DNA from: Squalus acanthias
Lineage: Eukaryota
Reading direction: 5' to 3'
Length of the DNA: 64,000 bases
Assembly: GCA_030390025.1 (NCBI GenBank)
Contig: CM059432.1
Location: 36,706,001 to 36,770,000, forward strand
The position numbers and the translations under genes were made by a program. Within the stretch, counting starts at the first letter, position 1. Each line of letters begins with the position of its first letter. Under the pieces are notes generated by a model, which made no database searches, was not told the origin of the DNA, and worked only from the letters and a program-made list of their open reading frames with translations. Positions 3,897 to 63,215 of this stretch are shown piece after piece.

Positions 3897-5480
3897 ATAT
3901 GGCACAGAAGGAGGCCATTCGGTCCATCGAGTCCGTGCCGCCTCTCTGTAGAGCAATCCAGTCAGTCCCATTCCCCCGCTCTATCCCCGTAGCCCTGCAA
4001 GTTTATCTCCCTCAAGTGCCTATCCAGTCTCTCCTTGAAAACATTGAGTGTCTCCGCTTCCACCACTTCCGTCGGCAGCGAATTCCAGGTCCTCACCACT
4101 CGCTGCTTAAAAAAGTTTTTCCTCACATTCCCCCCTGTATCTCTTGCCTAAAACCTTAAATCTGTGTCCCCTAGTCCTTGTACCATCAACTAGTGGGAAC
4201 AGCCTTTCCCCGTCTAGCCGAGCCAAACCCGTCATAATCTTGTACACCTCTATCAAATCACCCCTCAACCTCCTTTGCTCTAATGAAAACAAATCCAACT
4301 TCTCCAACCTGTCCTTGTAGCCAAGATCCCCCAGCCCCAGAACCATTCTGGTAAATCTCCCTCTGCACCCTCTCATGGGCCTTCACATCCTTCCTAAAGT
4401 GTGGTGACCAGAACTGGATGCAATACTCCAGTTGTGGCTTAACCAGCACTTTATAAAGGTTCAGCATAACTTCTCTACTTTTATACTCAATACCTCTATT
4501 TATGAAGCCCAAGATCCCATAGCTTTGTTAACCACTCTCTCAATATGTCCTGCCACCTTCAGGGACCTATGCACATTAACTCCCAGGTCCCGCTGTCCCT
4601 GCACACTCTTTAAAACTGTGCTATTAAATGTATATTGCCTCTTCCTGTTCCTTCTGCCAAAATGCATCACCTCACACTTCTCTGTATTAAATTCCATCTG
4701 CCACTTGTCTGCCCATTCTGCTAGCCTTTCTATGTCCTGTTGCAGTCGATTGGTATCATCATCACTGTTTGCCACACCCCCAAGTTTGGTGTCATCGGCA
4801 AATTTAGAAATTCTACTCTGTATTCCAATATCCAGGTCATTTATATACATCAAAAAAAGCAGTGGCCCCAGCGTTGACCCTTGGGGAACCTCACTGTCTA
4901 CCATCCTCCAGTCTGAAAAACAGCCATTTACCACAACTCGCTGTTTTCTGTCATTAAGCCAATTCCTTATCCAAGCTGCCACTGACCCACATATTCCATG
5001 AGCCTCAATTTTGTTAACCAGCCTTCTATGTGGTACTTTGTCAAACGCCTTCCGAAAATCCATGTAGACAACATCCATTGCATTCCCTTCATCAATCCTC
5101 TCTGTTACTTCATCAAAAAATTCAATTAGATTAGTCAAACACAATCTGCCTTTTACAAATCCGTGTTGGCTCTCCTTAATTAGCTTAAACCTCTCCAAGT
5201 GCCCGTTAATTTTTTCCTTGATTATTGTTTCTAAAACTTTACCCACCACTAATGTTAAACTGGCTGGCCTGTAGTTACTAGGATTGTCCTTACACCCTTT
5301 CTTGAACAATGGTGTCACATTTGCCACTTTCCAATCCTCAGGCACCTCCCCCACATCTAGGGAAGATTGGAAAATTATGGCAAGCCTTTCCGCTATCTCC
5401 TCCCCCAATGGGATGCAAGCCATCTGGACCAGACGACTTGTCCACTCTAAGCATACCCAGCCTTTCTAGTACATCCTGTC
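3897..5480 (-). mobile_element. CR1 LINE RT/3' fragment
   Basis: ORF 4500-5423 with [33 protein letters not shown]1 3' end near 3900. Confidence 0.92.
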
Positions 5481-9160: not shown

Positions 9161-9785
9161 CTGCCAAACACAACCAACAGGGCACAGTCTTAAAAACAAA
9201 CTTAGTCAGCGTACCTCCAGATCAGTGCACTGTCTACAACCTTATCAGTAAAAGTGATCATATTTTGGAACATATGGATGTCCTGAAGACCTAGTGACTC
9301 AAGGCACCACACCTACAATACCAGGTTAGACTAGAAAGTTCCCAGGGCACATCTGAGGCAGCAGCTTTGTCCTCAGTGCCCAATGGCACTGCCCCCTTGT
9401 CTGTGAACAATCGAATGAACACTGGCGACCCTCACGTGCATTAACCATCCATGAGCAAAGACGGCGAGGATATTTGACCCTGAATGGATTCAGAGCCGAG
9501 CCCAATCATCCAACATTAGGGGGTTGACTTTCTCCTAGATTTTGATAATAAAAACAGAAGCTGAAATACACCCGGGAAACCCCAGTTATCTTAACCTGTA
9601 ATGAGAGGCCACATTGCACCAAATTCCTACCCTGCCACAGGTGAAAGGGCAGCAAGGAGCTTGAGCACAAGTTGCAGCAATATCCCTCATTGCTGCCCAA
9701 GAGGAAGATTCCAAGACCCCTCAGCCAAGACATCCCAGAGATCCAAGAAGAACAAACTGAAGTGCTGTGCCACTCAGCCCCAAAC

Positions 9786-9896
9786 CTTGAATATCCTGCA
9801 GGCAGCTGCTGCAGCATGTTTCTCTGCATCAATCTTCTTATTGCCAAAGCCTTCCACCATCAGTTTTCTCGGCCAAGAGATGTACAGGACGGTTTT
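9786..9896 (-). CDS. DHX30: DHX30 coding exon 3 (dsRBD-like 1)
   Basis: ctttctttacaaag|...|gtttgg, 111 nt. [37 protein letters not shown] matches DHX30 [37 protein letters not shown]. Confidence 0.95.
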
Positions 9897-10139
9897 CTTT
9901 GTAAAGAAAGAGAAGACTGCTGTGAATCGCTAACAAAACACAGGATCCAGCCATAAATAACATACAAGTAACATCCCAATACACTGCATGATAATGCTAT
10001 AAAATAAGACAGGTACTGAAATATACTAAGGATAAAACAAGGCCAGAAGGTTAGGACTGCTGAGAGCAAACCCAGGCCCCGCTGACGGGACAAGGCCCAG
10101 ATTGCTGTGGGTGAGAGCATGATCAGAATTGGCTGTACA

Positions 10140-12437: not shown

Positions 12438-13649
12438 CTAAACAATAGTTTAATTTATACTCAGTATGTGTTGTCAGCCATCAGCAGGATCTCAAAACCT
12501 GGGGAATCAATTTTTCCCCTCTCCAGAAGGTACCAACTTTTGCTGGGGTACAGATCAACAGACACAGGCCACCATCACCCAAGTGGCCATTATGCATGGT
12601 GATCATCACAGATTGTGAGCAATTTGCAGGACTATTCGACTGTAGGAGGGGGGCATCACAGACTATCCTGATCCTGCCTTCACCCAACATCTACAGATGC
12701 ACTTGCCAGCTGGAGTCACTGGATGGTGATAGGAATGAAAACTCTGGCCGATTCCTCTCTTCCTCATCACGCCACTTCCAACCAAAAAAAGTCAACTATA
12801 GTCTGACCAATCATAGTTGAGATTAGCTGGCTCAGCACAAAATCTAGAGCATAGGAAATCAAACAAAATAATGGTTTACATTAGATTGCCAATTCTTGCC
12901 CCTCTTTGCTGACCATCAACCTCAGTCCGAGCATTTCCTTTTGTTGACTGCTCTTAGCAACATTGCTAAAGTTACTGTTTATTAATCCAGTTACTATTTA
13001 TTAATCCATTAATGTTAATTAATCAAATTACTATGTATGAATTAATCCATAATTATATAGTATTTATTAATCCAGTTACTGTTTATTCAAAAAAAAAATT
13101 AATTCATTCTCAGGATGTGGACGTCACTGGCAAGGCCAGCATTTATTGCCTAGCTCTAGTGGTGAGCCGCCTTCTTGACACAACTGAGTGGCTTGCTGGG
13201 CCACTTCAGAGGGCAGTGAAGAGTCAACCAAGTTGGTGTGGGACTGGCGTCACATATAGGTCAGACCAGGTAAGAACAGCAGGTTGCCTTCTCTAAAGGA
13301 CAGTTGTGAACCAATTGGGGTTTATAGACAATCTGACAGTTTCATGGTCACTTTTACTGATACCAGCTTTTATTAGACATTGAAATCTGATTTAACAATA
13401 CTATTTAATTGAGTGTTTAATGATTATAGAATCATAGAACGATTGAGCACAGAAGCAAGCCATTCGGCCCATCGTGTCAGTGCCAGCTCTTTGAAAGAGC
13501 TATCCAATTAGTCCCCCTTCCCATGTCCTTTCCCCATAACCCTGCAATTTTTCCCTTGATATTTAATATTGTAGTGCTTTGTAATTTACTGCATATTATA
13601 TTTGATCATATCTCAGTGTCGCTGTACGTCTGATTGTATACACTGCATG

Positions 13650-14070
13650 TGCTGAGTGCTCAGGCTTGGCCCTGTAGCTCCCACCTTGCTGCCTGCTGCC
13701 CCCTGCTCCCGGCGGCCGCTCCGACTCTTCCTCCTCTCCCCCGGGGTCACGCTGCTGCTGCTCCCGCGGACTTGCCGTGTGCTTAAACCGGCTCATTGCT
13801 CCAGTCTGGCCGCAGTCCCACTCCGAGTGCCAGCTGGGGGCTGCGGCCCGTCCCCATGGCCCGGTGCTGCGGTGTCTCAGCGGGCAGAGCCCCCTCATTA
13901 AACGGCGCAACGCACCCGAGGCCCCAACCGCCGCCATCTTTGACATAAACAGCAGCCGAGCCGGCTACAGGGCTTCGCGGAGAGGCGAGGAGCAGTGGAC
14001 AAGATGGCGCTCCCACAATTAGTTCTGACAACCAGTGCAGCGCAGCGCAGCGCAACCCCTGCTGGCAGGA
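13650..14070. promoter_or_regulatory. CpG island / DHX30 promoter with two opposed YY1-type motifs
   Basis: GC- and CpG-rich non-repeat stretch. GCCGCCATCTTTG at 13930-13942 (AAGATGGCGGC on minus) and CAAGATGGCG at 14000-14009 on plus. Confidence 0.75.
13685..13946 (-). CDS. DHX30: DHX30 coding exon 1 (mitochondrial-presequence-type N-terminus)
   Basis: MSKMAAVGASGALRRLMRGLCPLRHRSTG...GGSRQQ in a CpG island. ATGs at 13946 and 13937 (AAGATGGCGG). Donor CAAG|GTGGGA at 13684, phase 1, joins exon 2 in frame. Resembles the MAAARRLM start of the mitochondrial DHX30 isoform. Confidence 0.8.
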
Positions 14071-18641: not shown

Positions 18642-18968
18642 CAGGAAACTCTTTATTAACCGGCACCGACGGGACCGGCGTGGTGCCGGTTGATCAAAAA
18701 GTCCGGTTTACAGAGAGGTATACTTACCAAGGTACAAGAGCCCCGTACACGGCCACAGGTGCAGGAGCCCCGGCTACACGGCCACAGATCCAGGAGTCCC
18801 TGGTGCACGGCCACAGGGGCAGGAACCCCGGTTACACGGCCACAGATCCAGGAATCCCGGTTACACGTCCACTAATATATAGTAAAACTTACCTGAACCT
18901 ACTCCTGAATTTTGCCGGTTAAGAGAGATTTCCGGATATTTAGGTGTCGGTTAAAAGAGAGTTTCCTG
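18642..18968. mobile_element. Tc1/mariner-pogo (Tigger-like) MITE with internal 29-bp tandem repeat
   Basis: TA|CAGGAAACTCT ... AGAGTTTCCTG|TA. About 5 units of period 29 (ACAC/ACGGCCACAG core at 18749, 18778, 18807, 18836, degenerate at 18865). Confidence 0.85.
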
Positions 18969-40458: not shown

Positions 40459-40734
40459 TCACCTATCCATACTTCGCTCATTCTCTATCGCCAGAGTCAA
40501 TCTCAAGTCTGAACTGTTGTCATCCTGTAAACACGGGGGGCCGCTTCGAGCCTCCGTCAACGAAGGGGCACACTCGGCAGATTCGGTCCTCATGCCAGGC
40601 TTGTTAGCTGACAGCCAGTGCAGGTCCCTAGGCCGCTCGTAGCGGCTTTCTCTAAGGGAGTTGGTATATCCTTTCAATACGTCCAAGTCTTCAGCTGATA
40701 AGGGAAATATCCTTGGCTCCCATGGTTGCACCAT
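40459..40734 (-). CDS. KANSL1: KANSL1-family terminal coding exon
   Basis: tttattctcgtag| MVQPWEPRIFPLSAED...SMDR* (KANSL1 has VQPWERRTFPL). TGA at 40461-40459. Confidence 0.93.
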   Translation of the reverse strand: MVQPWEPRIFPLSAEDLDVLKGYTNSLRESRYERPRDLHWLSANKPGMRTESAECAPSLTEARSGPPCLQDDNSSDLRLTLAIENERSMDR

Positions 40735-41341
40735 CTACGAGAATAAATAAAATGCATTATTAGAATATGTAAAATGTGCTCCCCCACCACCCCAATTTTC
40801 TCCTCCTATGACTGATATTGAGGTACTGTAGTGTAGTACTGGACTAGCAACCATGAGTTCAAATCCCACATGGCAAGTTGGGAAAATTAATTAGATAAAT
40901 CGAGTAATTTGAGGGCTTGCACCAGAAAAATAACCATGAAAGTGTACAGTTCATCGTCAAAACCGAACTGGTTCATTAATGTTCTTCAGGGAAGGGACCT
41001 GCATATAGCCCAAGTTCCATGCTATGCGGTCAACTTTATTTCCCACTGAAGTCACTCAGTTTCCTACATTACAACTGTACTTCACTTCAAAAATACTTCA
41101 TTGGCTGTAAAGCACTTTGGGACATCCTGAGGTCGTGAAAGGTGCTATATAAATGCAAGTCTTTCTTTTTTTAGTTGTAAATCGCTAAAAGGGAGCCACC
41201 ATCAATAAATGAGGCACTATAGCACTATATTGGACAACACAGCATTATGCAGTTTCCATCGTAACTGTAGACATAGGGATTTATAATAGAAGTGTGCACA
41301 GACCCAAGATTCTGAATCTACTACAGATACTTCAAACGTAC

Positions 41342-41597
41342 CTGTACTTCATCATCTGTGACCTCAGGCGTAGACGACCGCGTGTCCTCGCTGAAGGATA
41401 GGACTCTTGTGCGATCTTTTGAGGAGAAGGAATTGAGCGATGAGTAGGCTTCGGGGCTGACGGGGCCAGTGAACGAGGGTGTGTGGGGGTAGTCGTTGAG
41501 TAAGTGAAATCCACTGTCGGGTGATGCAGGCTGAGGAGTTGTTGGGTTTGCTTGCTGTGGTTGTGGGGTAGATCTGCCATCGGCTTTGTTAGAAGAT
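41342..41597 (-). CDS. KANSL1: KANSL1-family penultimate exon
   Basis: ggtttccag|...|gtacgt, 256 nt. SSNKADGRSTPQPQQANPTTPQPASPD...SEDTRSSTPEVTDDEVQ matches KANSL1 SSDGRTTPQ..ANPSTPQPASPD...SEDTRCSTPE. Confidence 0.95.
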
Positions 41598-41964
41598 CTG
41601 GAAACCAGAAGGAAACCATATTCAGTAAGGACCTTCACCCAAAATATCGTTTCTTCACTAGTTGGTTCTAATTTTGGCATTAGGACACCAATCAATCTCC
41701 TGTGTTTCCCCCTGCCCCACACCCAATTTTCTTCCCTCATGCCAGCAACTCGAGCTTTAACTGTTTGCCATTATCTCTCCCCAGCAGTCAATTCATGTGC
41801 GATTCTGAATAGTGAGAGTTCGCAGACTATTAAATCATGTGTTGACCAGCGAGCTGAGCCTGACCTCCACACACAATCACTTCCCAGTGAAGTCAGTGGG
41901 CAGCGAACAGGAGCGGGAACCAGTGCTGAAATCCTCTCAGGGACACTGAGACCAATTGTAGAGC

Positions 41965-42815
41965 CCCTATGCAACAAGACCTGGACGATGTTCAGGCTTG
42001 GGCTGATAAGTGGCAGGTAACAATCGCGCCACAGAAGTGCCAGGCAATGACTATATCCAACAAGCGAGAGTCTAACCACCGCCCCTTGACAATCAACGGC
42101 ATTACCATCGCCACATCCCCCACCATCAACATCCTGGGGACTTACCATTGACCAGAAACTTAACTGGACCAGCCACATAAATACTGTGGCAACAAGAGCA
42201 GGTCAGAGGCTGGGTATTCTGCGGCGAGTGTCTCACCTCCTGACTCCCCAAAGCTTTCCACCATCTACAAGGCACACGGAAGGAGTGTGATGGAATACTC
42301 TTCATTTGCCTGGATGAGTGCAGCTCCAACAACACTCAAGAAGCTCGACACCATCCAGGACAAAGCAGCTCGCTTGATTGGCACCCCATCCACCACCTTA
42401 AACATTCACTCCCTGCACCACCGGCGTACCGTGGCTGCAGTGTGTACCATCTACAAGATGCACTGCAGCAACTCGCCAAGGCTCTTTGGCAGCACCTCCC
42501 AAACCCGCGACCTCTTCCACCTAGAAGGACAAGGGCAGCAGGTGCATGGGAACACCACCACCTCCAAGTTCCCCTCCAAGTCACACACCATCCTGACTTA
42601 GAAGTATATTGCCGATCCTTCATCGTCGCTGGGTCAAAATCCTGGAACTCCCTCCCTAACAGCACTGTGGGAGTACCTTCAACACACGGACTGCAGCGGT
42701 TCAAGAAGGTGGCTCACCACCACCTTCTCAAGGACAACTAGGGATGGGCAATAAATGCTGGCCTTGCCAGCGACGCCTACATCCCATAAAAACGAATAAA
42801 ATGAAAAAAAAAAAA
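41965..42815 (+). mobile_element. LINE family B 3' fragment with A-rich tail
   Basis: MQQDLDDVQAWADKWQVTIAPQKCQAM...; ends GCCAGCGACGCCTACATCCCAT plus A-rich tail. Confidence 0.88.
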
Positions 42816-44309
42816 TCTCTGCCCTGGCTAAAAGCAGGCAGAACAGGGATCCAGTCGAGGAGTTTGCTGATCTGTATGTCTCAATACTGTACTATGTAGT
42901 CCATTTACCCAATGAGCCATCATTGGAAGTGCAAGGCAGCAAGAACATTTATAAAAAAACACTTCTCTTCTCTCCATTTCTCTCCTGGAGTATCGAGAAG
43001 ATGATGCGAGGGAGTTTCAGCCCAGTGACAATGGGGATAAATAGACTAACAATGATAAAACACTTTGAATACAGCAAGACTTGCTCTCAACAACAAAAAA
43101 AAAGTGAAGCTGGACAAGACCAGTCTGTGGCCTGACATCAGGAACTCACCAATAAATATTACAAGTGGAAGCTCCTTCCGACGGTTTACTGAGCAAAGAT
43201 ATCACCCACTACAGGACTGAAATGAATAGATTAGAAAGTCTCTGGGATTTCTGCCATCCCAGCCTGGTCTGGCCGACATATGACTAGCCCCAAACTACAC
43301 AGTTGACTCTTAACACCCTCTGAAATGGGCGAATGAGCCATCCAGTTGTAAAAACACAAGTGTCCCAGCACCACCTTCTCAGAGTAACTAGGGACAGGCA
43401 ATAAATGCAGCCTCGTCAGCTGTTGCCCACAAACAAATATAGCAAATGTCGGGCATCAGCAGGGGAGCTATCATTTGTCTCAGTGCCCTTCAAGCTGGGG
43501 TGGAAACTGACCCAGGTTTCCTTCTCCTGATTGCCATGCACTCCAACATTGATGCTGACACAGGAAGAGTGGGGAGGTACAGGACTGCTCCAATGCCGAT
43601 GGATCCAGACATCAGCAAGGGCCAGCACTTTTGGGAGAAAATTGCCAAAAAAAAATAAAGCTCTGAAGATAGCTTATTGACAGTAACTGGACACTATGTG
43701 CTTTGGAAATGGGGACAGAAATGAGGCTGTCCAGATTTTCAGGTGACAGCAAATTACAGTAGGGAACAGGTAAACCAAATACAAAGGGACTTGGATGGGC
43801 TAGGAAGGTGGGCTGATGAATGGCAAATGGCATTTGGTGAGGATGAATGCTAGGTAATAGGAGGAGGAGAGAAGGGAAACAAACTTTAAGGGTATAAAAG
43901 GGATAAAGCAAAAGCGGGTAAATGGAGTTGGGGTGCAGATTGGTCGTAATCTAATTGAATTTCAGAACAGGCTCGAGGGGCTGAATGGCCTACTCCTATA
44001 ACAAAAGGGTAAGGTCTGAAGGTTCGAAGACGGATGGCGCACAGGCAGTTTAGATTAATCTACTTTACACAGAGGGAGGCAAATGTGTGGAATGGACTGC
44101 CCAGGGAAGCAGGTAGTGTGGGGAATTTTAAAAGAGAATCAGTTAAATATTTGAGGGAGTGGGCAATTGAGGGGTATTCATTTTTGGGAGGTGGATTGAA
44201 GAACATTTTACCACTCCCAAATATTCCTGTGCACTGACAGTGCACTCCAAATTAATTTGCAGATTCTAAACAGGAACTAATATCCAGGAACTTCCAACAT
44301 CATGTTTAC

Positions 44310-44422
44310 CTGCTCCCCCGCCTGGCCGAGCTGGATGAAGACCACAAGCACCATCTGGAACGTTCCATTTCCTCACATTTGGAATGGCGATTAAGGAAGG
44401 CTTCGTCAGACATCTCCTCGTA
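44310..44422 (-). CDS. KANSL1: KANSL1-family exon (PEHE domain)
   Basis: acatag|...|gtaaac, 113 nt. YEEMSDEAFLNRHSKCEEMERSRWCLWSSSSSARRGSR matches [24 protein letters not shown]...QRRGSR. Confidence 0.95.
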
Positions 44423-44532
44423 CTATGTATTTAAGAATAGACAATTGAATAGTTTAAAATCTTACAGCAAAATAAAACAGACTCACTAATTCTCCATGGA
44501 CTTTCTGAAACTTCTGATATGTGATAAACTAC

Positions 44533-44593
44533 CTGGTCATCCTCCAACTTGCAATACTGCAGCTTCGACTGCTCAACGTCTGCAATTCGCCAG
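44533..44593 (-). CDS. KANSL1: KANSL1-family exon (PEHE domain)
   Basis: ctccttggcag|...|gtagtt, 61 nt. (S)WRIADVEQSKLQYCKLEDDQ completes ILTPSWR. Confidence 0.92.
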
Positions 44594-46148
44594 CTGCCAA
44601 GGAGAAATGGAAGATGATTATACAGTACTCGTTTGAAGTAATGCTTCTAACTATATAGCATCTCATCACATCTCTCAGAAATGATCTCAAGACTGGGCAT
44701 TCATTTCACTGCTGTTTGTGAGATCTTCCTGCGTACAAAATGGCCGAGACATTCTGATCCAGAGGTGGGTGTTTAACCAATTGAGCCACAGCAGCATTCA
44801 ATGTTTAGTGTGACCAAATATCTATACAAATTCAGCAACGTTTAAGATAGCTCAAAGATTACTCAGTCAGCTCACAGCTAGTTTGGCAGTTCAGATGCTA
44901 CAATTAATCTCAGGATTAGAGAGAGGGGAAAAAATCAATTAGAGTTCTTGTTCCTAATTACTATCCAGTGGCCCAAGCTGCAAAGCATACATGTTTGAAC
45001 ACTGGGCAAGAGGAGCACTGAGCTTACTTGTGATGTACCATGTGGTGGAACAGCTTCACTCACTGCCAAGGCTCCAATAAGAGCAGCTACTTGGGGGAAG
45101 CATTGGAGGACTGCCTGTGGTGGCAAAATCATATCCCATCACTAGCTGCTGCGTTCAGGGTAAGACACAGCATTTATGGGGGGAAATTTGCAGGTTGTAT
45201 GTGGCGCAGGAGAGACAATTAGATGGAGAAGAGTGTAACACACCTTCAAGGAACCAGCCCCTGGCACTGAAGGTGCACATTGTGCCTTTACCCGTCTCTG
45301 GATCAGAAAGTCGTGGGTTCAAGCCCAGGAATGAGCTTGAGCACATAACCTTGACAGACACTTCAGTGCAGCATTGAAGTCATGCTCCTTTGTTGGAGGT
45401 ACCGTCCTTCCAACGAGATGTTAAACTGAGGAGCCGTTCACATAATTAGGTGGCTGTTCAACATCCTGTGACACTATCTGAAGAAGCTGGAGCCCTGGCC
45501 AACATTCCTCCTTCAACCAACATGACCAAAAACAGAGTAACTGGTCATTCATTTTTTGCTGTTCGTGTGATCTTTTTGCCTGCTAAATGGCTGCCTACAT
45601 AACAGAATTCAAACTGAGCCCAGACTGATGAGATAAAACTGGGGTTCTACGTCAAATGAGACAGTTTATAACTGGCATCACCGCACAACACAAAGCTACC
45701 CATAAAATCCCCCTCTCCATTTAGTGACGCCATCAGGATAGCTGGTGTAGGAAACAGAAATGTTAGACTAATGCAACAAGGGGCACTCTTCTGCGATTTG
45801 AGCTAAGGTGGAAGGAAAGTCATGGGGCAGCACTTTTAGTACAAGGTACTGCCTGAATGTCTATCTGAAGCCATCGAGTGGAAGACAGAAGGTTCCTTAT
45901 AGGAAGGCAGAGAAAGTGCAGCGAGGGTGACACTCATAGAATCATGGAATGTTACAGCACAGGAAGAGGCCATCTGGCCCATCAAGTCTACAATAGTGCT
46001 CTCCACTCTCCTGCGCACTCCTTCTACCCCTTTCATATTTCTCTTTTTCAAACTATCTAATTCCCTTTTAAAAGAATTTCTGGACTCTGCTTCAACATAC
46101 ACCCACAGTTCACTTGACTGAAATCCCACTGACGCTGCACTGCGTTAC

Positions 46149-46267
46149 CTTGGTGTCAGGATCTCCTTGTACTGAAGTTTCTCCACTCGAGCTGCTGCAG
46201 CCATGGACATGGGAATCACAATGTTGTTTATGTCGAATGAACTTTCACCTCTTCTCCTTCGTGCAGA
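46149..46267 (-). CDS. KANSL1: KANSL1-family exon (highly conserved pre-PEHE motif)
   Basis: ctcttgcag|...|gtaacg, 119 nt. [39 protein letters not shown] is nearly identical to KANSL1 [37 protein letters not shown]. Confidence 0.96.
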
Positions 46268-47431
46268 CTGCAAGAGCAAGCGAGAATAAAAATTACAAAC
46301 GTCAACTTTCTGCTTCTTTAGAAGTTAATCATTTTGAACGCTGGAAATCAAAATAAAAACAGAGACATTTGTTTTTTCTAATTGGGCCACGAGATGGAGC
46401 TCTGAAAGGTGTTTCGAAGGGGGAAAAGAGTGTAAGAGATCAGAAATACAGCACATTAGCCAGGAGCAGCCAATATCAGCAGGGCTGGGAGCATGTTTAA
46501 AAGAAACAAAGAACTTACATTTATATAGCTCCTTTCCCAACCTGAGGACATCCCAAATAGCTCTACAGCCAATTAAATATTTTTGAAATGTAGTCACCAG
46601 TGCAGTACTGAGCGATAAGATGTCTTTTAGATGAGACATTAAACCAAGGCACCCTCTGCGTCTTCAGATGGATGTAAAGGATCCCATGACACAAGAAAAG
46701 GGAGTTCAGGTGTTTTGGCTAACATTGATCCTTCAACCAACATCTGGAAATTTGTTCCTTGTGGAACTTTGCTATGCATAAATTGGCTGTCACATTTACC
46801 TACATAACAACTGTGAGTGCACTTCAAAGGACATTTGTTGGTTGGGAAGCACTTTGGGATGGTCTGAGATGATAAGGTGCTGCATAATTCCAAGCTCCTT
46901 GCTTGTTAAATCCAGTTTTCAGGATCGACCGTTCACACTAGGGTCACCAGAGTTAACACTTCTTCTGTAAACATAGACTTTCCTTTAAGGCCATGTGGTT
47001 GTGATACTTCCTGTTTAGACAGTTATGCGTACCAATCAAAATAATAGAAACATAGATTGGTTACAGCACAGGAGGCCATTCAGCCCGTCGAGCCCGTGCT
47101 GGCTCTCTGCAAGAGCACTTCAGCTAGTCCCACTCCCCCGCCCTTTCCCCGTAGCCCTGCAAATTTTTTTTCCTTAAATCCTGTTATTTTAAAATGAGCA
47201 CAAAACAGGTACAATAAAAAATATCGAGGAAGTCCCATTCATTAAAGAAAAACACAAAAAATTTAAGAATATCTCAGAACATAGAAAACAGCGCAGCAGC
47301 ATAGTTGAATTTCTCCTGGTTCTTGAAGCTTTAAGCCTCTTGACTTCGCTTACAATGAGCAAGGGTCGGTCCGTACCTTGTAATATGGGCAAAGTTCGTA
47401 TCTCCTGACCCAGTTTAAGATGCTTTGAGAG

Positions 47432-47870
47432 CATAGAATCATATAGCACAGGAGGCCATTCAGCCCATTGTGCCTGTGCCAGCTCTTTGAAAGAGATATC
47501 CAGTTAGTCCCACTCGCTGCTCTTTCCCCACAGCCCTGCAAGTATTTCCTTTTCAAGTATTTATCCAATTCAATTTTGAAAGTTACTACTGAATCTGCTT
47601 CCACCACCCTTTCAGGCAGTGCATTCCAGATCATAAGAAATCGCTGTGTAAAAAAATTTCTCCTCATCTCCCCTCTGGATTTTACATCAATGATCTTAAA
47701 TCTGTGTCCTCTGGTTACTAACCCTCCTGCCAGTGGAAACAATTTATCCTTATTTACTCTATCAAAACCCCTCATAACTTCGAACAACTCTACTAAATTG
47801 CCTCTTAACCTTCACTGCTTGAAGGAGAATAATCCCAGCTTGTCTAGTCTGTCCACATAACTGAAGTCCC
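47432..47870 (-). mobile_element. CR1 3' fragment
   Basis: TRGHRFKI..MRRNFFTQR..WNALP; a shorter one lies at 47045-47175. Confidence 0.85.
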
Positions 47871-47917
47871 AGCCTTTGTGGATACATTTCAAATCAAGAA
47901 CCCATGCTTTAACTTAC

Positions 47918-48078
47918 CGATGTAGAAGTGGTGGATGATGCTGGCTGGTTGTGTACAACTGAAGGAGGGGTGTCTGTGTACGAAGGTGACTGGTGCATTG
48001 TTGAACTGGGTTTTGGAGTCTGGGGATTCAGCAATGACGGGGATGAACTTGAAGCTGCTTTGTGTCGTTTATTGAGTG
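47918..48078 (-). CDS. KANSL1: KANSL1-family exon (Ser/Pro-rich)
   Basis: ccttccacacag|...|gtaagt, 161 nt, phase 1 to 0. ALNKRHKAASSSSPSLLNPQTPKP...SSTTSTS. Confidence 0.85.
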
Positions 48079-49189
48079 CTGTGTGGAAGGAAAGTAACAC
48101 AAGGTTAGCAGTGCTCAGTACAGTATTCATTCCTTTCTATCTATGTTTTGGGAGATGAGAGGTAAAGCTCCCAATATTAATACACATCAAGCTGTGCTAC
48201 AATGAAGAATCGGCAATTCATTTCCTCTCCTGCAGGTGCTGTAGTTACCAACTCTGGCCACGCATGCACGCACTCAATTCTGCAGTGGAACTTATTTCCC
48301 TGTCTCATTTTCTCCTCTCCTGAATGAGCTAACCTTTGCTGGGTAACGGCTCCACTAGCCCCTGGAGCTGTCAAAACTTCTTTAAAAAAAAAAAAAAAAA
48401 ATTGTTCTTAGGATGTGGTCGACCCTCTTATTGAATTGAATTTCACAACTAGCCATGGTGGGATTTGTATTTGCAACAACGAGGCTACTGTAGCCTCTCA
48501 TATTTGAGTACTGATGGTGAATGTCAGCAGGGTATTTGATCGTGGGGGCCTGTTGTCTCCTCTTGTGCATCCCCCACTTTCTTCACCACACCATTAGCGG
48601 CCGTGCCTTCAGCCATCTGGGCCCTAACCTTTGGAATTCCCTCCCAAGCCTCATCGCCTCTCCACCTCTCTCTCCTTCTTTAAGATGCTGCTTAAAATCT
48701 ACCTCTTTCACCAAGCCTTTAGTCGCCTGTCCTTGCGTCTCCTTCTTCGGCTTTGCGTCAATTTTGTCTGATTACGCTCCTGTGAAGCACCTTGGGATGC
48801 TTTACTACGTTAAAGGCACTATATAAAAGCAAGTTGTTGTTAACTTCTCAGCACGGGTTACTGGATAGTGATTATACTCTTCTGATCCTACCAGCATCAT
48901 AGCCGAGATCAGTTAACAAAACACAAAGCAGGAGTCAGCCAGGCCTATTTAATTGCATTTGTGTGTGTTATTTTTGTAGGGTGAGGTGCTGATTCAGAGG
49001 ATTCCTTCCAAACACTGCTCCACAAAGAGTCAGTATGTTTAATGAGGATATCATCACACATAGTCACACAAATCTTAGAACTAACTTTTGGATTGGAAAG
49101 TTGTGTGTTGATCATTTCCCTAGATTATATGAGGAAAGTTTCAAAGGGAGTAGCCCGTGGGAAGCTGAAATAGTTAAGAGGTTAATGAC

Positions 49190-49321
49190 CAAGGTTAACT
49201 TTAAGCTGCGCAGTCCTGCGGCTCCCGCGCAGCCAGCACACAGGCTTTTAAATAGGAAAAACCGTGCATGCGTGGTATTCTGAATGGGCTGCGCAGCCAA
49301 AAAAAATTAAAGGGAACATTG
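49190..49321. mobile_element. hAT-type MITE (132 bp)
   Basis: Exact 8-bp TSD TTAATGAC at 49182-49189 and 49322-49329. Imperfect TIR CAAGGTTAACTTTAA / TTAAAGGGAACATTG; internal GCTGCGCAG motifs. Confidence 0.8.
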
Positions 49322-49677
49322 TTAATGACTGTTCAAAGTTGGCTTGAAATCATGGTGTTCTTGTGTAAAATGTTTAAATTGTAACAGTTAAAAACAAAAA
49401 CAGCAGTTGTGGATTTGTCCGACTCTCTGAATTTATGGCAGTACAGCGGTATTACAGCTGGGAAATGCAGTAACTGTACAGATGATCAGGCCGTGCTCGA
49501 ACCCAGCAAAATCGGACTCTAGTTTCAGTCGATAACATAGTCGATCATTGCCAGGTTGAGCAACCATCGTCACCTGAGTTACATGACGCTTTTTTGTGGA
49601 TGAAGCGAGGCTCTTGGCAATAGCACCGAGCAAGATGCTCAATAACAAATAACTGCAATAAAGTAGACAGGTTTCCT

Positions 49678-49915
49678 TTGGGGGGGGTGGTGGTGGGAGA
49701 GATGGGGAAAGAAAGGGAGGGGGAGGGTAGGAGAGATGGGGTAAGAAAGGGGGGCGCGAGGGCGAGCGAGGACGAGTGGGGGCAAGGGTGAGGGGGGGCG
49801 AAGGCAAGGGCAAGAGAGGGCCTGAGTGGAGGGGGGCGAGGGGCCGAGAGGGGGGGAGGGCACGAGAGGGGGAGGGAATAAGAGAGGTAAAGGAATGAGA
49901 GAGGTGAGACAACAA
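49678..49915. repeat. G/A-rich low-complexity tract
   Basis: Multiple G runs on plus; reads as a long pyrimidine tract on the transcribed minus strand. Confidence 0.8.
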
Positions 49916-50309
49916 AAAAGTTTAGATCAGAGAGAATTACATAAAAACATACGGAAACTAAGGACTGGAAAACTCCAGCTGGTCCATCGAGCCTGTCCCA
50001 TGTTATCGTGGTGCAACCTATGCGCACCACGACCCCTATTCTTCCCCCCACACCCACAACCACCCACACAATCTCCCGGGAGCCTGAAAACCAGGAGATT
50101 GCTACTCAACTTAGAAAAGGAAATTAACTTAGTTTGTTTTTAAACACCTGGTTGAAATATTTATAGCTTTTAGTTGATGGTTGATGTTTTGAAATATGTG
50201 GCACACTCAAGTCTGTGATTTCACATGTTATGTCTCTGCCCTTTTTCGGCCAACTGATAAAAATACCCACAGCCGATAAAAACCATGACTGTCTGAGTCA
50301 AGGTTACTG

Positions 50310-51485
50310 TACTCATCCAGGCAAGTGGAGAGTATTCCATCACACTCCTTACTTATGCCTTGTAGATGGTGGAAAGGCTTTGGGGAGTCAGGAGGTGAGA
50401 ATACCTAGCCTCTGACCTGCTCTTGATGCCATAGTATTTATGTGGCTGGTTCAGTTAAGTTTCTGGTCAATGGTGACCCCCCAGGATGTTGATGGTGGGG
50501 GATTCGGCGATGGTAATGCCGTTGAATGTCATGGGGAGGTGGTTAGACTCTCGCTTTTTGGAGATAGTCATTGCCTGGCACTTGTGTGGCGCGAATGTTA
50601 CCTGCCACTTATCAGCCCAAGTCTGAACGCCATCCAGGTCTTGTTGCATGTGGTCATGGACTGCTTCATTATCTGAGGGGTTGTGAATGGTGCTGAACAC
50701 TGTGTAGTCATCAGCAAACATTTCCATTTCTGACCTTATGTTGGAGGGAAGGTCATTGATGAAGCAGCTGAAGATGGTTGGACCTAGGACACTGCCCATA
50801 GGAACTCCTGCAGCGATGTCCTGGAGCTATGATGATTGACCTTCAACCACCACAACCGCCTTCCTTTGTGCTAGGTATGACTCCAGTCAGTGGAGCGTTC
50901 CCCCCCCACCCCCCCGATTCCCATTGACTTCAGTTTTACGAGGGCTCCTTGATGCCACACTCGGTCAAATGCTGATTGATGTCAAGGGCAGTCACTCTCA
51001 CCTCACCTCTGGAATTCAGCTCCTTAGTCCATGTTTGGACCAAGGCTGTAATGAGGTCGGGAGCCAAGTGGTCTTGGCGGAACCCAAACTTGGCATCAGT
51101 GAGCAGGTTTTTGGTGAGTAAGTGCCACTTGATAGCACTGTCGATGACACCTTCCATCACTTTGCTGATGATTGAGAGTAGACTGAGGGGGCGGTAATTG
51201 GCCGGGTTGGATTTGTCCTGCTTTTTATGGACAGGACATACCTGGGCAATTTTCCACATTGTCGGATAGATGCCAGTGTTGTAGCTGTACTGGAACAGCT
51301 TGGCTAGAGGCGCGGCTAGTTCTGGAGCACAAGTCTTCAGCACGATAGCCAGGTTGCTGGCGGGGCCCATAGCCTTTGCTGTATCCAGTGCGCTCAGCCG
51401 TTTCTTGATATCACGTGGAGTGAATCGAATTGTCTGAAGACTGGCTTCTGTGATGGTGGGACCTCAGGAGTCGGCCGATATGGAT
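50310..51485 (-). mobile_element. LINE family B RT fragment
   Basis: VLKTCAPELAAPL, NPANYRPLSLLS, GSVLGPTIFSCFINDLP, FADD. Confidence 0.9.
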
Positions 51486-51489
51486 CAGT

Positions 51490-54400
51490 TAATTTAGAAA
51501 GTTAAAGAGAAAGGACAGGGCAATAGTGCAGGGTAGTGATATGGGCAATGAAAACCAGAGTGTGACAGGAAGGGACAGAACGTACAAACATAAGAGTGCA
51601 CCAGCAAATAAGGTCAGAGTAGGGAAAAATGATAAAAAGACAAAATTAAAGGCTCTTTATCTGAATGCACACAGCATTCGTAACAAGATAGATGAATTGA
51701 CGGCACAAATAGAAATAAATGGATATGATCTAATAGCCATCACAGAGACGTGGTTGTAATGTGACCAAGGCTGGGAACTGAATATTCAGGGATATTTGAC
51801 ATTTCGGAAGGATAGACAGAAAGGAAAAGGAGGTGGGGTAGCTCTGTTAATAAAGGATGAGATCAGTACAATAGTGAGAAATGATCTTGGCTCGGAAGTT
51901 CCAGATGTAGAATCAATTTGGGTGGAGGTAAGAAATAGTAAGGGAAAGGCGGCACTGGTGGGAGTAGTCTATAGGCCCCCCAACAGTAGCTACACTGTAG
52001 GACAGAGTATAAATCAAGAAATAATGGGGGCTTGTAAGAAAGGTACTGCAATAATCGTGGGCGATTTTAATCTTCATATAGATTGGACAAAACAAATTGG
52101 CAAAGTAGCCTTGAGGACGAGTTCATAGAGTGTATTCGGGACAGTTTCTTGGAACAATACGTTGTGGAACCGACCAGGGAACAGGCTATTTTAGATCTGG
52201 TAATGTGTAATGAACCAGGATTAATTAATGATCTCATAGTAAAGGATCCTCTAGGGAAGAGTGATCATAACATGATAGAATTCCACATTCAGTTTGAAGG
52301 TGAGAAACTTGGGTCTGAAACTAGAGTATTAAATTTAAATAAAGGCAATACAAAGATATGAGGAGAGAGTTGGCTAAAGTGGACTGGGAAAATAGATTAG
52401 AAGGTAAGATGGTAGAAAAGCAGTGGCAGACATTTAAAGAGATATTTCATGACTCTCAACAAAGATATATTTCAGTGGGAAAGAAAGACTCGAAGAGAAG
52501 GATGAACCAACCATGGCTAACCAAGGAAGTTAAGGATGGTATCAAATTGAAAGAAAAGGCATACAACGTTGCAAAGATTAGTGGTAGGCCAGAAGATTGG
52601 GAACATTTTAGAAACCAGCAAAGGATAACTAAAAAAAAGAGGGAGAAAATAGCTAATGAGAGTAAACTAGCAAGAAATATAAAAACTGACAGCAAGAAGT
52701 TCTACAAGTATATAAAAAGAGAGTAGCTAAAATAAACGTTGGTCCCTTAGAGGACGAGAGTGGGGAAATAATAATGGGAAACAAGGAAATGGCTGAGGCA
52801 TTGAACAAATATTTTGTATCTGTCTTCACAGTAGAGGACACTAAAAACATCCCAGTAATAGTAGAAAATCAAGGGGCAAAAGGGAGGGAGGAACTTAAAA
52901 CAATCACTATCACTAGAGAAAAAGTGCTAGGCAAACTTATGGGTCTAAAGGCTGACAAGTCCCCTGGACCTGATGGCCTGCATCCTAGGGTCTTAAATGA
53001 AGTGGCTACAGAGATAGTGGATGCATTGGTTGCAATCTACCAAAATTCCCTGGACTCTGGAAAAGTACCTGTGGATTGGAAAACCGCAAATGTAATGCCC
53101 TTATTCAAAAAAGGAGGGAGACAGAAAGCAGGAAACTATAAGCCAGTTAACCTAACATCTGTCATTGGCAAAATGCTCGAATCAATTATTAAGGAAGTAG
53201 CAGCAGGGCATTTAGAAAATCATAATACAATCAAACAGAGTCAACATGGTTTTATGAAAGGGAAATCGTGTTTGACAAATCTATTCGAGTTCTTTGAGGA
53301 GGTAACAAGCAGGGTGGATAAAGAGGAACTCGTCGATGTAGTGTATTTGGATTTCCAAAAGGCATTCGATAAGGTGCCACATAAAAAGTTACTACTGCAT
53401 AAGATAAGAGCTCATGGTGTTGGGGGTAATATTAGATTGGATAGAGGATTGGCTAACTAACAGAAAACAGAGAGTCGGGATAAATGGGTCATTTTCAGGA
53501 TGGCAATCTGTAACTTGTGGGGTGCCACAGGGATTAGTGCTGAGGCTTCAACTATTTTCAATCTATATTAATGACTTGGATGAAGGAAGCGAGTGTATTG
53601 TAGCCAAAGATAGGTGGGAAAGCAAGTTGCGAGGAGGACATAACGAGTTTGCAAAGGGATATAGATAGGTTAAGTGAGTGGGCAAGAATTTGGCAGATGG
53701 AGTATAATGTGGGTAAATGTGAAGTTATCCACTTTGGTAGGAAGAATAGAAAAGCAAAATATTATTTAAATGGAGAAAGACTACAGAATGCAGCGGTACA
53801 GAGGGATTTAGGTGCCCTCGTACATGAAACACAAAAAGTTAACATGCAGGTGCAGCAAGTAATTAGGAAGGCAAATGAAATGTTGGCCTTTATTGCAAGT
53901 GGGATGGAGTATAAAAGTAGGGAAGTCTTGCTACAACTGTATAGCGCGCTGGTGAGACCACACCTGGAGTACTGCGTACAGTTTTGGTCCCCTTATTTAA
54001 GGAGGGATATACTTGCAATGGAGGCAGTTCAGAGAAGGTTCACTAGGTTGATTCCTGGGATGGAAGGGTTGTCTTATGAGGAAAGGTTGAGCAGGTTGGG
54101 CCGATACTCATTGGAGTTTAGAAGAATGAGAGGTGATCTTATTGAAACATAAAAGATTCTGAGGGGGTTGGACAGGGTAGATGCTGAGAGGATGTTTCCC
54201 CTCGTCAGGGAATCTAGAACGAGGGGACATAGTCTCAGAATAAGGGGTCGCCCATTTAAGATGGAGATGAGGAGGAATTTCTTCTCTTAGCACGTTGTGA
54301 ATCTTTGGAATTCTTTACCCCAGAGAGCTGTGGAAGCTGAGTCATTGAATATATTCAAGGCGGAGATAGACATATTTTTGAGCAACAGGGGAGTCAAGGG

Positions 54401-54517
54401 TTATGGGGAGCGGGCAGGAAAGGCCAAAATCTGATCAGTCATGGTCTCATTAAATGGCAGAGCAGGCTCGAGGGGCCGAATGGCCTGCTCCTGCTCCTAT
54501 TTCTTATGTTCTTATGT
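51490..54517 (+). mobile_element. CR1 LINE with disrupted near-complete ORF2
   Basis: EN and RT motifs spread over many broken ORFs; 3' tail TTCTTATG repeats. Confidence 0.93.
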
Positions 54518-56760
54518 AAGGTGCTTGACATAGTGAGGCTTTAATGAGTAGGAAACAGATTTCCTACCTGTTCCCTGTGTATCTGTCATTGTGAAAATAG
54601 GAGGTGTGCAGAACAGTAGGGTGTGGTAAAAAAATGAAGTTTCAAACTGTCAGGCAGTGGTCTTTCCGAAAACAATTAAACAAAAGTTTGATTAAAGCTT
54701 GCACTGGGTGAGCAGACTCCTGTTTAGATTGTGGTTTCACCAATTTTCCATCCTCCTGTTCTGAAGATACTGACTCTCATTGGGGTGGAGCATCAGTTGG
54801 AAGCGCTCGTGCCTCCGAGTCAAAACGGTCAAGCCCCGCTCCATAAGCCAGGCTGACGTTTTAGTGATGGAGTGCTGCCTTGGTGGAGGTTCAGTCTTTT
54901 GGTTAAATTGAGGCCCTGTTCAGGTGGATGTTAAAGCACCCATGGCACTATTTGAAGAGGAGCAGGGAGTGCTTCCAGTGTCCTGGCCAATATTCATCCC
55001 TCAACCACCACCACCAAAACAAATTAACTAATCATCCATCTCATTTGCTGTTTGTGGGATCTTGCTGTGTGCAAACTAGATGCCACGTGTACCTACAAAA
55101 CAGTGACTGCACTTCAAAAGTAATCCAAAATAGCCTTTGGGTGTCTCAAGGAAGTGAAAGCTGCTCGATCATTCAAGTTCTTTTTTCTTCACTGTTCCCC
55201 TGCCTCTGCCTCACCCAAATGGCCATTCTCATGACAAGGTCGTGGTGACAAGAGTTTTGACTGTTGGGGGCATCACAGCTGAAACCTAATGCTGTCCTCA
55301 GCTGACATGCACACATACACACTTTTCGCAGGGGTCACTAGAAAGCGACTAGAAGGACACAAACCCAGGGTGATCTTTTTTCTTTCACGGGCTAATCCAA
55401 TATTCAGGTCCCAACTGTTGTCTGGTCTGAAATCAGCAAACCCGGCACAGACATAGGGTTGAGCTTTTAGTCCGTAAATAGCCCAATACCACATCAGATG
55501 ATGTCCTAACCCACAAAGGGGAGAGGGGAGCTTTGAGCTATCCTACATTCAGAACAAAATGGTTAGTTGCTCAGATTTCTCTTTTTTTCCCCTCAGTTTC
55601 AGCCAAATATTCATTGCTGTTCAGCAAGTAGTGAGAAAAAAATGGAATTCAAAACAGAAATAAAGACCCACAAATGGTCTCCAAAGAGACTGATTCCACA
55701 TACATATATGGTGTCCTTTGGGCCCACTTCACTGTACAGCTTGCCTACTCAGTTTTCAGAACAAAAGGAGACGTAGGGCACCCTGGTGCAGCATAATCAC
55801 CAACAGAATCACGGGCTATGTTGAAAAGCTCCCTTAATGGTCGGTAAACACAGCACCTGGTGCTGTACTGAGCAGCACAGAATTCTAATGCTCGATCTCC
55901 CATCTCTGGAGCAGTAGCTCGGGTGCTACAATTGGCCTCAGTACTCCTGGTCAAGGAAAAGAGCAAAAGTTATGCCCAATTCCAGTTCCTGCCCACTGGC
56001 CCTTGTTGGAAAGATTGTCTGTGCGCATGCCGTTCTGTATTACTTCTAAAATAAATCTTCTGTGGCCTTTCTCACAGTGATTCAGAGGATATGCTGAAGT
56101 GTTAAGTCTGACAGCTGATGTGTAAACATGTTGGTCACAGCAAGTGTGTGCTGTATGCAAAACTTTTAATATCGATATACACTTCCTATACACAAACCGT
56201 ACTTCTGGTTGTCAAGATTTTTTGTCACGATTTTCTGTCAACATTTACCATTGTAAATTGCAAAGTCAACATAACCTAATTTTGCTGTGTCAACCATCAA
56301 AATGTAGTTGCAGGCCACTAGGTGGATCAAGTTTATGATGTCATTATTCCAACTCTATTGCCATCTTGTGTATAAAAAAGACTTGTATTCATCAACTGAC
56401 CATGAGCAAAACCACAAATGACGGATGGATATATTTTTGGGCCAGAACAGAATCAAGTTCAGCAGTGATGCCCTTCACTATTACTACTCACTGTCCGGGC
56501 TCACAGACAAAGAATGGTCACTTGGGCAAGGCACTGGAGGCCGGCATTCAGGAAAGGAGGAGTAAAATTGGAAGAGGAGGGATAAGGAAGGAATATCAAA
56601 AATATGGCAGAACTGGCCTGATCAATTTGAAAAAGTGATTTTAGAAACAAATGGCAGCAGTGGGTTCTGACCACTGACAATCAAATCAAATCCTACCAGG
56701 AACAATCCACATTGCTCGGTGAAATCACAGTATTGGGCATTTCTGCACAGCCTCTATTAC

Positions 56761-56904
56761 CTAAGTGGACAGACGATCGCTGCCTCTTTATCTGTGTGTT
56801 GAGTTTTTCCGTGAAAGGATCGATCTCTGATTTGGAGGTCGGCTGCCAGTGATCTAGTCGTCGTTTGAAGATCTTTTCCGATGCGTTTCTGCTCTGCACA
56901 TATT
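56761..56904 (-). CDS. KANSL1: KANSL1-family gene, most 5' exon visible
   Basis: tttccccctcag|...TTAG|gtaata, 144 nt, phase 1-1. YVQSRNASEKIFKRRLDHWQPTSKSEIDPFTEKLNTQIKRQRSSVHL joins the 48078 exon in frame. Sequence similarity is weak, so the assignment rests on position and phase. An alternative donor at 56696 is phase 2. Confidence 0.65.
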
Positions 56905-57452: not shown

Positions 57453-57753
57453 CAGAGGCGGCGGACCTGGGTGGAGCAACAGCGGCGAGGCGGCGGCGGT
57501 AAAAGGCGGCAGCGACCAGGTAGGCCCACAGAGGCGGCGGACCTGGGTGGAGCAACAGCGGCGAGGCGGCGGCAGTAAAAGGCGGCAGCGACCAGGTAGG
57601 CCCACAGAGGCGGCGGACCTGGGTGGAGCAACAGCGGCGAGGCGGCGGCGGTAAAAGGCGGCAGCGACCAGGTAGGCCCACAGAGGCGGCGGACCTGGGT
57701 GGAGCAACAGCGGCGAGGCGGCGGCGGTAAAAGGCGGCAGCGACCAGGTAGGC
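57453..57753 (+). repeat. Four near-perfect 76-bp GC-rich tandem monomers at the CR1 5' end
   Basis: Units start at 57453, 57529, 57605 and 57681 (CAGAGGCGGCGGACCTGGGTGG...CAGGTAGGCCCA). Confidence 0.95.
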
Positions 57754-57964: not shown

Positions 57965-58921
57965 ATGGGAGAGCAGGTGATGTGTTACTGCTGCAATATG
58001 TGGGAGCTGGTGGACACCATTGATGTTCACGGTGAACACATTTGCAGTAAGTGTTGGCTGCTCGAGGAACTCCGGCTCCGTGTTGATGAGCTGGAGTCCG
58101 AGCTTCAAACACTGCGACACATCAGGGAGGGGGAGAGTTACCTGGACTCCGTGTTTCAGGAGGTAGTCACACCAATTAGAGTAACTAATTCAGAAGTAGC
58201 CCGTGGTCAGGGACAGGAAGGTGTGACTACGAGTGAGGCAGGTACAGGGATCCAGGAGGTAGTGTTGGAGGAGCCGCAGCCCTTGCTCTTGTCCAACAGG
58301 TTCGAGGCTCTTACTCCCTGTGTGGATAGGAGCGGGGACTGCAGGGAGGATGAGCAACCTGGCCACAGCACCGTGGTAAGGGGGGCCATTCAAGTGGGGG
58401 GAGTAAAAAGAAATGTTGTAGTGGTAGGGGATAGTATCATTAGGGGGATAGATAGGGTTCTTTGCAGCCAAGAGCGAGAGTCCCGAAGGCTGTGTTGCCT
58501 GCCCGGTGCCAGGGTTAAGGACATCTCCTCTGGGCTGGAGAGAAACTTGGAGTGGGAGGGGGAGGATCCAGTTGTCGTGGTCCATGTTGGTACCAATGAC
58601 ATAGATAGGACAAGGAAAGAGGTTCTGCTGAGGGAGTTTGAGCAGCTAGGGGCCAAATTAAAAAGCAGAACCTCGAGGGTAATAATCTCTGGATTACTAC
58701 CTGAGCCACGAGCAAATTTGGCTAGGGTAAATAAAATCAGGGAGTTGAATGCGTGGCTCAAAGACTGGTGTGGGAAAAATGGGTTTTGCTTCTTGGGACA
58801 CTGGCACCAGTACTGGGGCAGGAGAGAGCTGTTCCGTTGGGACGGACTTCACTTGGCCAGTGCTGGGACTAGTGTCCTGGCGAATCGAATAACTAGGGCT
58901 GTGGAGAGGGCTTTAAACTAA
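57965..58921 (+). CDS. CR1 ORF1p: Zn-finger/leucine zipper plus SGNH/GDSL esterase
   Basis: Intact 318 aa. CYCC..CSKC, heptad [36 protein letters not shown]. Confidence 0.93.
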
Positions 58922-58959
58922 TTAGTGGGGGGGAGGTTTCAAGAGAGCAAAAAATAAAA

Positions 58960-63021: not shown

Positions 63022-63215
63022 GAGGAGAGAGAGCGTTATTCTGTGCTGTACCTGACTTGGTAATGGGGCAATGTAGAGAGAGCTGTACTTTGCACCTAAG
63101 CACTGTTGTACCTGATCCAGGGATGAGGCAGGTTAGAGAGGGGTGTCCTCTGTACCTAACCACTGCTGTACTTGACCTGGGAATGGGGCAGTGCAAAGGT
63201 GTGCTGTACTGGACC
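63022..63215. repeat. Degenerate ~60-bp minisatellite-like repeat
   Basis: Recurring GCTGTACCTGAC..GG..ATGGGGCA.TG.AGAGAG units; related sequence at 63845-63955. Confidence 0.6.

Follow-up and report, generated by a model that had tools for sequence, protein, structure and literature searches.

Introduction

KANSL1 is the Koolen-de Vries syndrome gene and encodes a chromatin scaffold, to which KANSL3 is, to our knowledge, unrelated in sequence. Human KANSL1 (MSL1v1, NSL1) is presented in the relevant parts of two papers as a disordered scaffold of the non-specific lethal (NSL) complex, which binds KAT8 via its PEHE domain, WDR5 via R592, and MCRS1 and PHF20 via its N-terminal part (PMC4018492, PMC6607013); the residues of its WDR5-interacting (WIN) motif are given as R592, R594 and P595 (PMC4018492). 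The paralog KANSL1L (MSL1v2, 2q34) is also a member of the PEHE family, and the pertinent passages of PMC10290595 describe homozygous Kansl1 knockout mice as not viable and Kansl1l knockouts as viable. In the published model of the MAPT/MAP2/MAP4 paralogon, KANSL1 is paired with MAPT and KANSL1L with MAP2, and the third segment is 3p21 (MAP4, MYL3); its KANSL passages and three supplements give no KANSL gene at 3p21 and name KANSL3 as the 'third paralog' (PMC4815063). An alpha/beta-hydrolase is listed as the plant counterpart of KANSL3 in the relevant part of PMC6607013. Here, a stretch of 64,000 nucleotides (nt) from the genome of Squalus acanthias (G000:C8:36,706,001-36,770,000; hereafter the window, with positions counted from its first letter) was analysed, in which a seven-exon feature of KANSL1 type lies at positions 40,459-56,904.

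Very probably, these exons make up the 3′ half of a third gene of the KANSL1 family (hereafter the third gene) that is intact and spliced, lies between SMARCC1 and DHX30, is distinct from KANSL1 and KANSL1L, likely stems from the early vertebrate genome duplications, has apparently disappeared from placentals and would encode an alternative scaffold of the NSL/KAT8 complex, which acetylates histones. It would fill the 3p21 slot that the paralogon model, with its two KANSL-MAP pairs, leaves empty in the parts concerned, and would thereby complete the KANSL/MAP paralogon (PMC4815063). As a distinct gene it is apparently undescribed: a literature search whose coverage excluded most subscription journals returned no description, and no such paralog is mentioned in the available parts of two reviews (PMC6607013, PMC13380446). 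Sequences of orthologs are public as automatic NCBI/UniRef records (XP_014348245, coelacanth; XP_043921960, lungfish; XP_015212644, gar; XP_036421411, Colossoma), and orthology databases may already group them. The orthologs are labelled 'KANSL1-like' or plain 'KANSL1', and the database names of the third gene and KANSL1L nearly coincide ('subunit 1-like' vs. 'subunit 1-like protein').

Results and Discussion

Gene structure and splicing

All seven exons lie on the minus strand with AG/GT borders on every one, and the last exon ends with the stop codon TGA. Joined, they comprise 375 codons with a single terminal stop, and the product is identical to a sawshark protein of 1,274 amino acids (aa) at 357 of 375 positions with zero gaps. 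With this sawshark protein as guide, a complete gene model was built that consists of 14 GT-AG coding exons over 202 kb (3,861 nt, 1,286 aa, zero internal stops; 92.5% identity to the guide protein). The seven further exons are located upstream and reach G000:C8:36,948,402. The initial annotation, made from the letters of the window, had claimed seven in-phase exons of an intact KANSL1-type PEHE gene; this was borne out by the open frame and by a PF15275 match above the cut-off, and both protein motifs quoted there were found in the sequence. When the last exon alone was used as query, 12 proteins among 123 candidates matched, exclusively from sharks and rays (1,225-1,285 aa), and among these matches the tail encoded by exon 14 occurs only in cartilaginous-fish orthologs.

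For the analysis of splicing, contigs from four public runs of four studies, presumed to be RNA and not recorded as such, were mapped onto the window. In all four runs exon 14 is joined directly to exon 13 within a single contig, so that the proposed junctions reappear as back-to-back exons. In the same contigs exon 9 stands at a spacing of 293 nt, and since this is exactly the length of exons 10, 11 and 12, these were taken as included. The loose ends of the contigs that cover exon 8 carry sequence of exons 7 and 9. In these contigs the third gene is thus spliced as predicted. The coding differences listed amount to 37 distinct ones (19 synonymous vs. 18 non-synonymous; neutral synonymous share 0.24-0.29) and yield an omega of 0.29-0.38 (p 2e-4 to 3e-3) for four of the less conserved exons, a rough estimate and not a true ratio of non-synonymous to synonymous rates, as only listed differences were classed (40 + 11 rows, with 191 further rows outside).

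Three KANSL loci in the shark genome

A search of the genome with the PF15275 profile gave three loci over the cut-off, on contigs C3, C8 and C19, all of which also carry tau-family repeats. The C19 gene is KANSL1 (14 exons, 1,129 aa, 91% identical to KANSL1 of Heptranchias), and the C3 gene matches whale-shark KANSL1L; both are complete in the shark, and the whale shark is represented in all three groups. Like shark KANSL1, the third gene has 14 coding exons; the set of 13 intron phases is identical and two exons are equal in length (142 and 166 nt), which indicates a DNA-level copy and not a retrocopy. Over 428 conserved columns the third gene is 61% identical to C19 KANSL1 and 48% identical to C3 KANSL1L, and it differs from KANSL1 in the N-terminal half and in the C-terminal tail. 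With regard to orthology, it lies outside the KANSL1 clade and away from MAPT, a place occupied by the C19 gene, and it is neither in the KANSL1L clade nor linked to MAP2, where the C3 gene is found instead.

Phylogeny and taxonomic range

A maximum-likelihood tree was calculated under a mixture model in IQ-TREE from 56 rows and 428 columns, the rows being hand-picked from 360 proteins plus the three S. acanthias genes. Three jawed-vertebrate clades were obtained, namely the third gene (23 rows, support 100/99), KANSL1 (14 rows, 100/100) and the long-branched KANSL1L (10 rows, 100/100). Sharks and bony vertebrates are represented in every one of them. The vertebrate KANSL genes including the third gene group together against invertebrate NSL1 (100/99), and three cyclostome rows fall outside all three clades. 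Among fishes, the third clade contains sharks, skate, coelacanth, lungfish, bichir, sturgeon, gar, bowfin, bonefish and a characiform, and among tetrapods Xenopus, caecilian, tuatara, lizard, turtle, emu, penguin, echidna, opossum and koala. By the tree and the approximately unbiased (AU) test, the duplication is older than the split of sharks and bony fishes and younger than the invertebrate outgroups; a shark-only duplication was rejected (p-AU 8.06e-5). The third gene and KANSL1 form a sister pair (97/88), while the alternative pairing of KANSL1 with KANSL1L was not rejected (p-AU 0.076).

One could suppose that the window gene is a rearranged KANSL1 or KANSL1L, a shark-only duplicate or an assembly duplicate, and the likely mis-join in the assembly that splits tau between C13 and C19 (see below) might be cited for it. 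This explanation has practically no probability left: KANSL1 on C19 and KANSL1L on C3 are complete and merely 61% and 48% identical to the window gene, orthologs occur in 12 other cartilaginous fishes and across bony vertebrates, and gene structure, tree and AU test refute it. The initial annotation had named, as the mark of a simple rearrangement, a grouping inside one of the known clades in a genome without KANSL1 beside MAPT; what was found is a separate clade and a KANSL1 gene beside tau on C19. Its view of the gene as a third paralog, KANSL1-like rather than KANSL1L-like, agrees with the clades, the identities and the sister pair.

From an exploratory tree of 168 rows, 10 were removed as less than half filled; four of these class with the third clade and have turtle or bird rows as best match. 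A second KANSL1L-like group in this tree, a candidate fourth KANSL paralog, was rejected as being KANSL1L of ray-finned fishes. Three proteins (P0253, P0311 and P0328) are short, diverged fragments of the third paralog with eroded motifs and match bird rows best (50-82%), which may point to erosion of the gene in part of the birds. No third-clade member from chimaera, platypus, crocodilians, galliform or passerine birds is among the matches listed (best 120), which is not evidence of loss.

Gene neighbourhood

The order on C8 is tau-family gene (+, 36.59-36.63 Mb), DHX30 (-), third gene (-), SMARCC-type gene (+, 37.03-37.05 Mb) and CSPG5 (+, 37.39 Mb). We take the order at human 3p21.31 to be MAP4-DHX30-SMARCC1-CSPG5 in the same orientations and without a KANSL gene. 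From the stop codon of the third gene (40459) to the likely start codon of DHX30 (13946) the distance is 26.5 kb on the same strand, close to the 26 kb or so estimated initially. A further DHX30 exon that encodes a double-stranded RNA-binding domain (dsRBD), besides the one in Table 1, has as its sole PDB match KIAA0890 (2db2), presumably DHX30 itself, and the DEAH helicase exons are located below the window. The Atlas comparison separated neither DHX30 from other DEAH helicases nor the KANSL paralogs from one another.

On C19, KANSL1 ends at 5,738,709 (+) and the tau gene at 5,765,649 (-), so that the two stand tail-to-tail, 27 kb apart. The third gene on C8 also faces a tau-family gene, but, unlike KANSL1, with DHX30 in between. 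The MAP2 projection domain was found on C3 only, at 88.28 Mb. Human tau (chain 6hre) scored 121.4 and 109.9 bits with the exons on C13/C19 vs. 77.8 and 78.3 bits with those on C8. Because the former are far nearer to human tau and the MAP2 projection domain is confined to C3, the C8 tau-family gene is, by elimination, taken as MAP4; it is convergent with DHX30, and MAP4 had been expected at this place beyond the DHX30 3′ end. This MAP4-type gene keeps a tau/MAP2-like last exon at G000:C8:36,631,709-36,631,918, which is 65% identical to the shark tau tail. Placental MAP4 usually has a different ending.

The shark tau gene (MAPT) is split, with repeat exons 1-2 at G000:C13:43,002,830-43,035,671 and repeats 3-4 plus the last exon at G000:C19:5,765,649-5,818,004. 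Both halves run in the same orientation into a common intronic minisatellite (26.8 kb and 36.9 kb; 2,014 20-mers in common, 0 on the opposite strand), and each ends at N gaps. Most likely this is a scaffolding break, and KANSL1 therefore probably belongs on C13. A candidate fourth tau-family gene on C13 was rejected, since it proved to be the 5′ half of tau itself. C13 also carries a Hox9 and a TOP2 gene.

Conserved motifs and predicted function

The features common to KANSL1 and the third gene are the PEHE domain, the WIN motif, a Cys/His cluster and a coiled-coil block. PF15275 (cut-off 34) gave 92.9 bits with the ortholog P0001 vs. 80.9 bits with shark KANSL1. The WIN motif reads A-A-R-V-R-P at residues 773-778 of the shark third-gene protein, with R776 as the WIN arginine, and R-x-R-P is present in 10 of 10 third-clade rows shown. 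After it follows a Cys-x-Cys...Cys-x-x-Cys...His cluster, a putative zinc site, in all nine third-clade rows shown and also in lamprey and acorn worm. The third gene keeps the first Cys of this cluster, which the bowhead KANSL1 row lacks, and the musk-deer row of KANSL1L, a gene derived from the same ancestor, has lost the Cys cluster. Neither the full ortholog nor exon 10 gave a useful result as a PDB query.

All four of these features are preserved in the shark protein, which is mostly disordered, and its likely role is therefore that of an alternative NSL/KAT8 scaffold. A scaffold of this kind is expected to bind KAT8, WDR5, MCRS1 and PHF20 and to promote H4 acetylation. The protein would bind KAT8 through PEHE and WDR5 through R776, and it could substitute for KANSL1 in part of the NSL complexes, either as a dosage back-up or as a tissue-tuned variant. 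There is a slim chance that the third gene, although real and old, moved to a job outside the NSL complex or works in only part of it. The loss of about 300 N-terminal residues in amniotes, the alteration of the conserved FDINNIVIP block in gar and teleosts and the eroded motifs of the bird-like fragments speak for such a change, but all four blocks of the shark protein have stayed intact and the PEHE score of the ortholog P0001 exceeds that of shark KANSL1. The shortened amniote N-terminus and the fast divergence of ray-finned and some bird orthologs hint at a relaxed need before the placental loss.

Retention in mammals and apparent loss in placentals

With the opossum protein as query, 1,306 matches were obtained among 7,999 scored candidates. 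The best 120 of 1,306 all class with the third clade and include 19 marsupial rows from six species, one echidna row and no placental row; they extend down to sharks, frogs and snakes at 41-45% identity, and four of them are nearest to reptiles or frogs. Among the best 150 of 1,431 representatives (50% identity), none stood beside the marsupials except koala, and the same 150 include placental KANSL1 (bowhead, deer) and KANSL1L (musk deer), the latter a gene kept in placentals. If placentals had an intact ortholog, it would be expected near the top of one or the other list; the third gene was apparently lost in this group. The initial wording, 'lost in mammals', was too broad and must read 'apparently lost in placentals', because echidna and six marsupial species keep the ortholog. 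Upon loss in the placental ancestor, SMARCC1 and DHX30 would have become direct head-to-head neighbours.

A wider proposal, which we put forward tentatively and regard as rather doubtful, is that jawed vertebrates ancestrally had three interchangeable NSL/KAT8 scaffolds. The third, the partner of MAP4, would still work in sharks, fish, frogs, reptiles, birds, echidna and marsupials, and its deletion in the placental ancestor would have removed the closest back-up of KANSL1, perhaps the reason why human KANSL1 is haploinsufficient; some frog and fish 'kansl1' records would then be the third gene. Since the 'KANSL1' records of frog, fish, turtle and marsupial include the third paralog, non-placental models or knock-downs for Koolen-de Vries syndrome may act on the wrong gene or have their effect buffered by this paralog. 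Hidden ohnologs that our own lineage has lost are a familiar class of finding, and the third gene implies no new chemistry. With it, a chromatin-complex scaffold joins the genes apparently lost in placentals and kept by marsupials; it also fills a gap in a disease-gene family and offers a direct test of the dosage hypothesis, i.e. whether the loss of its nearest paralog made KANSL1 dosage-sensitive.

Origin of the third gene

An origin by whole-genome duplication is likely. On the pre-duplication chromosome a KANSL gene would have faced a tau-family gene, and this pair would have been copied to give KANSL1/MAPT, KANSL1L/MAP2 and third gene/MAP4. Among the paralogous neighbours, each of the three segments has a tau-family gene, and there is a second SMARCC gene on C28. 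Instead, KANSL1 might have been duplicated locally or segmentally in the jawed-vertebrate stem, with the copy placed beside DHX30, but this is improbable. The sister pair of third gene and KANSL1, the cyclostome rows that do not sort into three clades and the missing Hox9, TOP2 and CDC25 matches on C8 would suit such an event; yet a tail-to-tail arrangement with a tau-family gene is seen for two of the three paralogs and a common contig with MAP2 for the remaining one, it is unlikely that the copy came to lie beside MAP4 by chance, and 3p21 is given as partner of 17q21 and 2q34 in the relevant part of PMC4815063.

Several points weigh against a duplication-derived scaffold gene lost in placentals. 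In the genome search Hox9 (three matches: C4, C3, C13), TOP2 (C4, C13) and CDC25 (C2, C3) gave no match on C8, and these markers therefore do not support a paralogon linkage of C8 across the whole chromosome. KANSL1L (C3, 114.7 Mb) is 26 Mb away from MAP2 (88.3 Mb) in this shark, while the human distance is presumably below 1 Mb. MAP4 on C8 was identified by elimination only, and the neighbourhood order is that of this shark genome alone, other species giving only sequence sizes (in stork, the third gene on a sequence of 169 Mb vs. KANSL1 on one of 8 Mb). The sister pair of third gene and KANSL1 conflicts with the MAP topology MAPT + MAP2 in the relevant part of PMC4815063. Moreover, the placental absence comes from the two protein searches and not from placental genomes, the scaffold role is predicted from motifs, the omega figure covers solely the listed differences, and the runs behind the splicing evidence are RNA by presumption.

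Features of the window

The coordinates of the third-gene exons and of two DHX30 exons are collected in Table 1.

Table 1. Exons of the third KANSL1-family gene and of DHX30 in the window
Feature	Positions	Strand	Remarks
Coding exon 8 of 14	56761..56904	-	144 nt; fully spanned by contigs of three of the four runs, in the fourth from 56763 (to within 2 nt); without counterpart in the skate and electric-ray isoforms P0010 and P0012
Coding exon 9	47918..48078	-	161 nt; Ser/Pro-rich linker
Coding exon 10	46149..46267	-	119 nt; conserved FDINNIVIP...KEILTP block, start of the KAT8-binding region
Coding exon 11	44533..44593	-	61 nt; variable part of PEHE
Coding exon 12	44310..44422	-	113 nt; PEHE core, PF15275 49.5 bits (cut-off 34)
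Coding exon 13	41342..41597	-	256 nt
Coding exon 14	40459..40734	-	276 nt including stop TGA; 3′ untranslated region runs on to at least 40100
Likely first DHX30 coding exon (open frame)	13599..13946	-	placed by position above the dsRBD exon; without own Pfam match; 3′ boundary not fixed
DHX30 dsRBD exon (frame)	9777..9929	-	PF24995 27 bits at cut-off 27

Exon 8 also has no matching stretch in amniote orthologs and is kept in the frog, coelacanth and paddlefish rows; its patchy presence reflects either alternative splicing or exon loss. Intron 7 contains a tandem repeat at 57453-57753 (76-nt unit, 4.0 copies, 99%), and other tandem repeats of the window are found at 18730-18872 (29-nt unit, 5 copies) and 63044-63191 (60-nt unit, 2.5 copies). 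The window is rich in fragments of long interspersed nuclear elements, and long retroelement open frames are present at 988-2100, 4503-5465, 51493-53457, 58897-61203 and other positions, which we take to be reverse-transcriptase/endonuclease fragments of CR1/L2 type and a Penelope-like element with a GIY-YIG-type tail.

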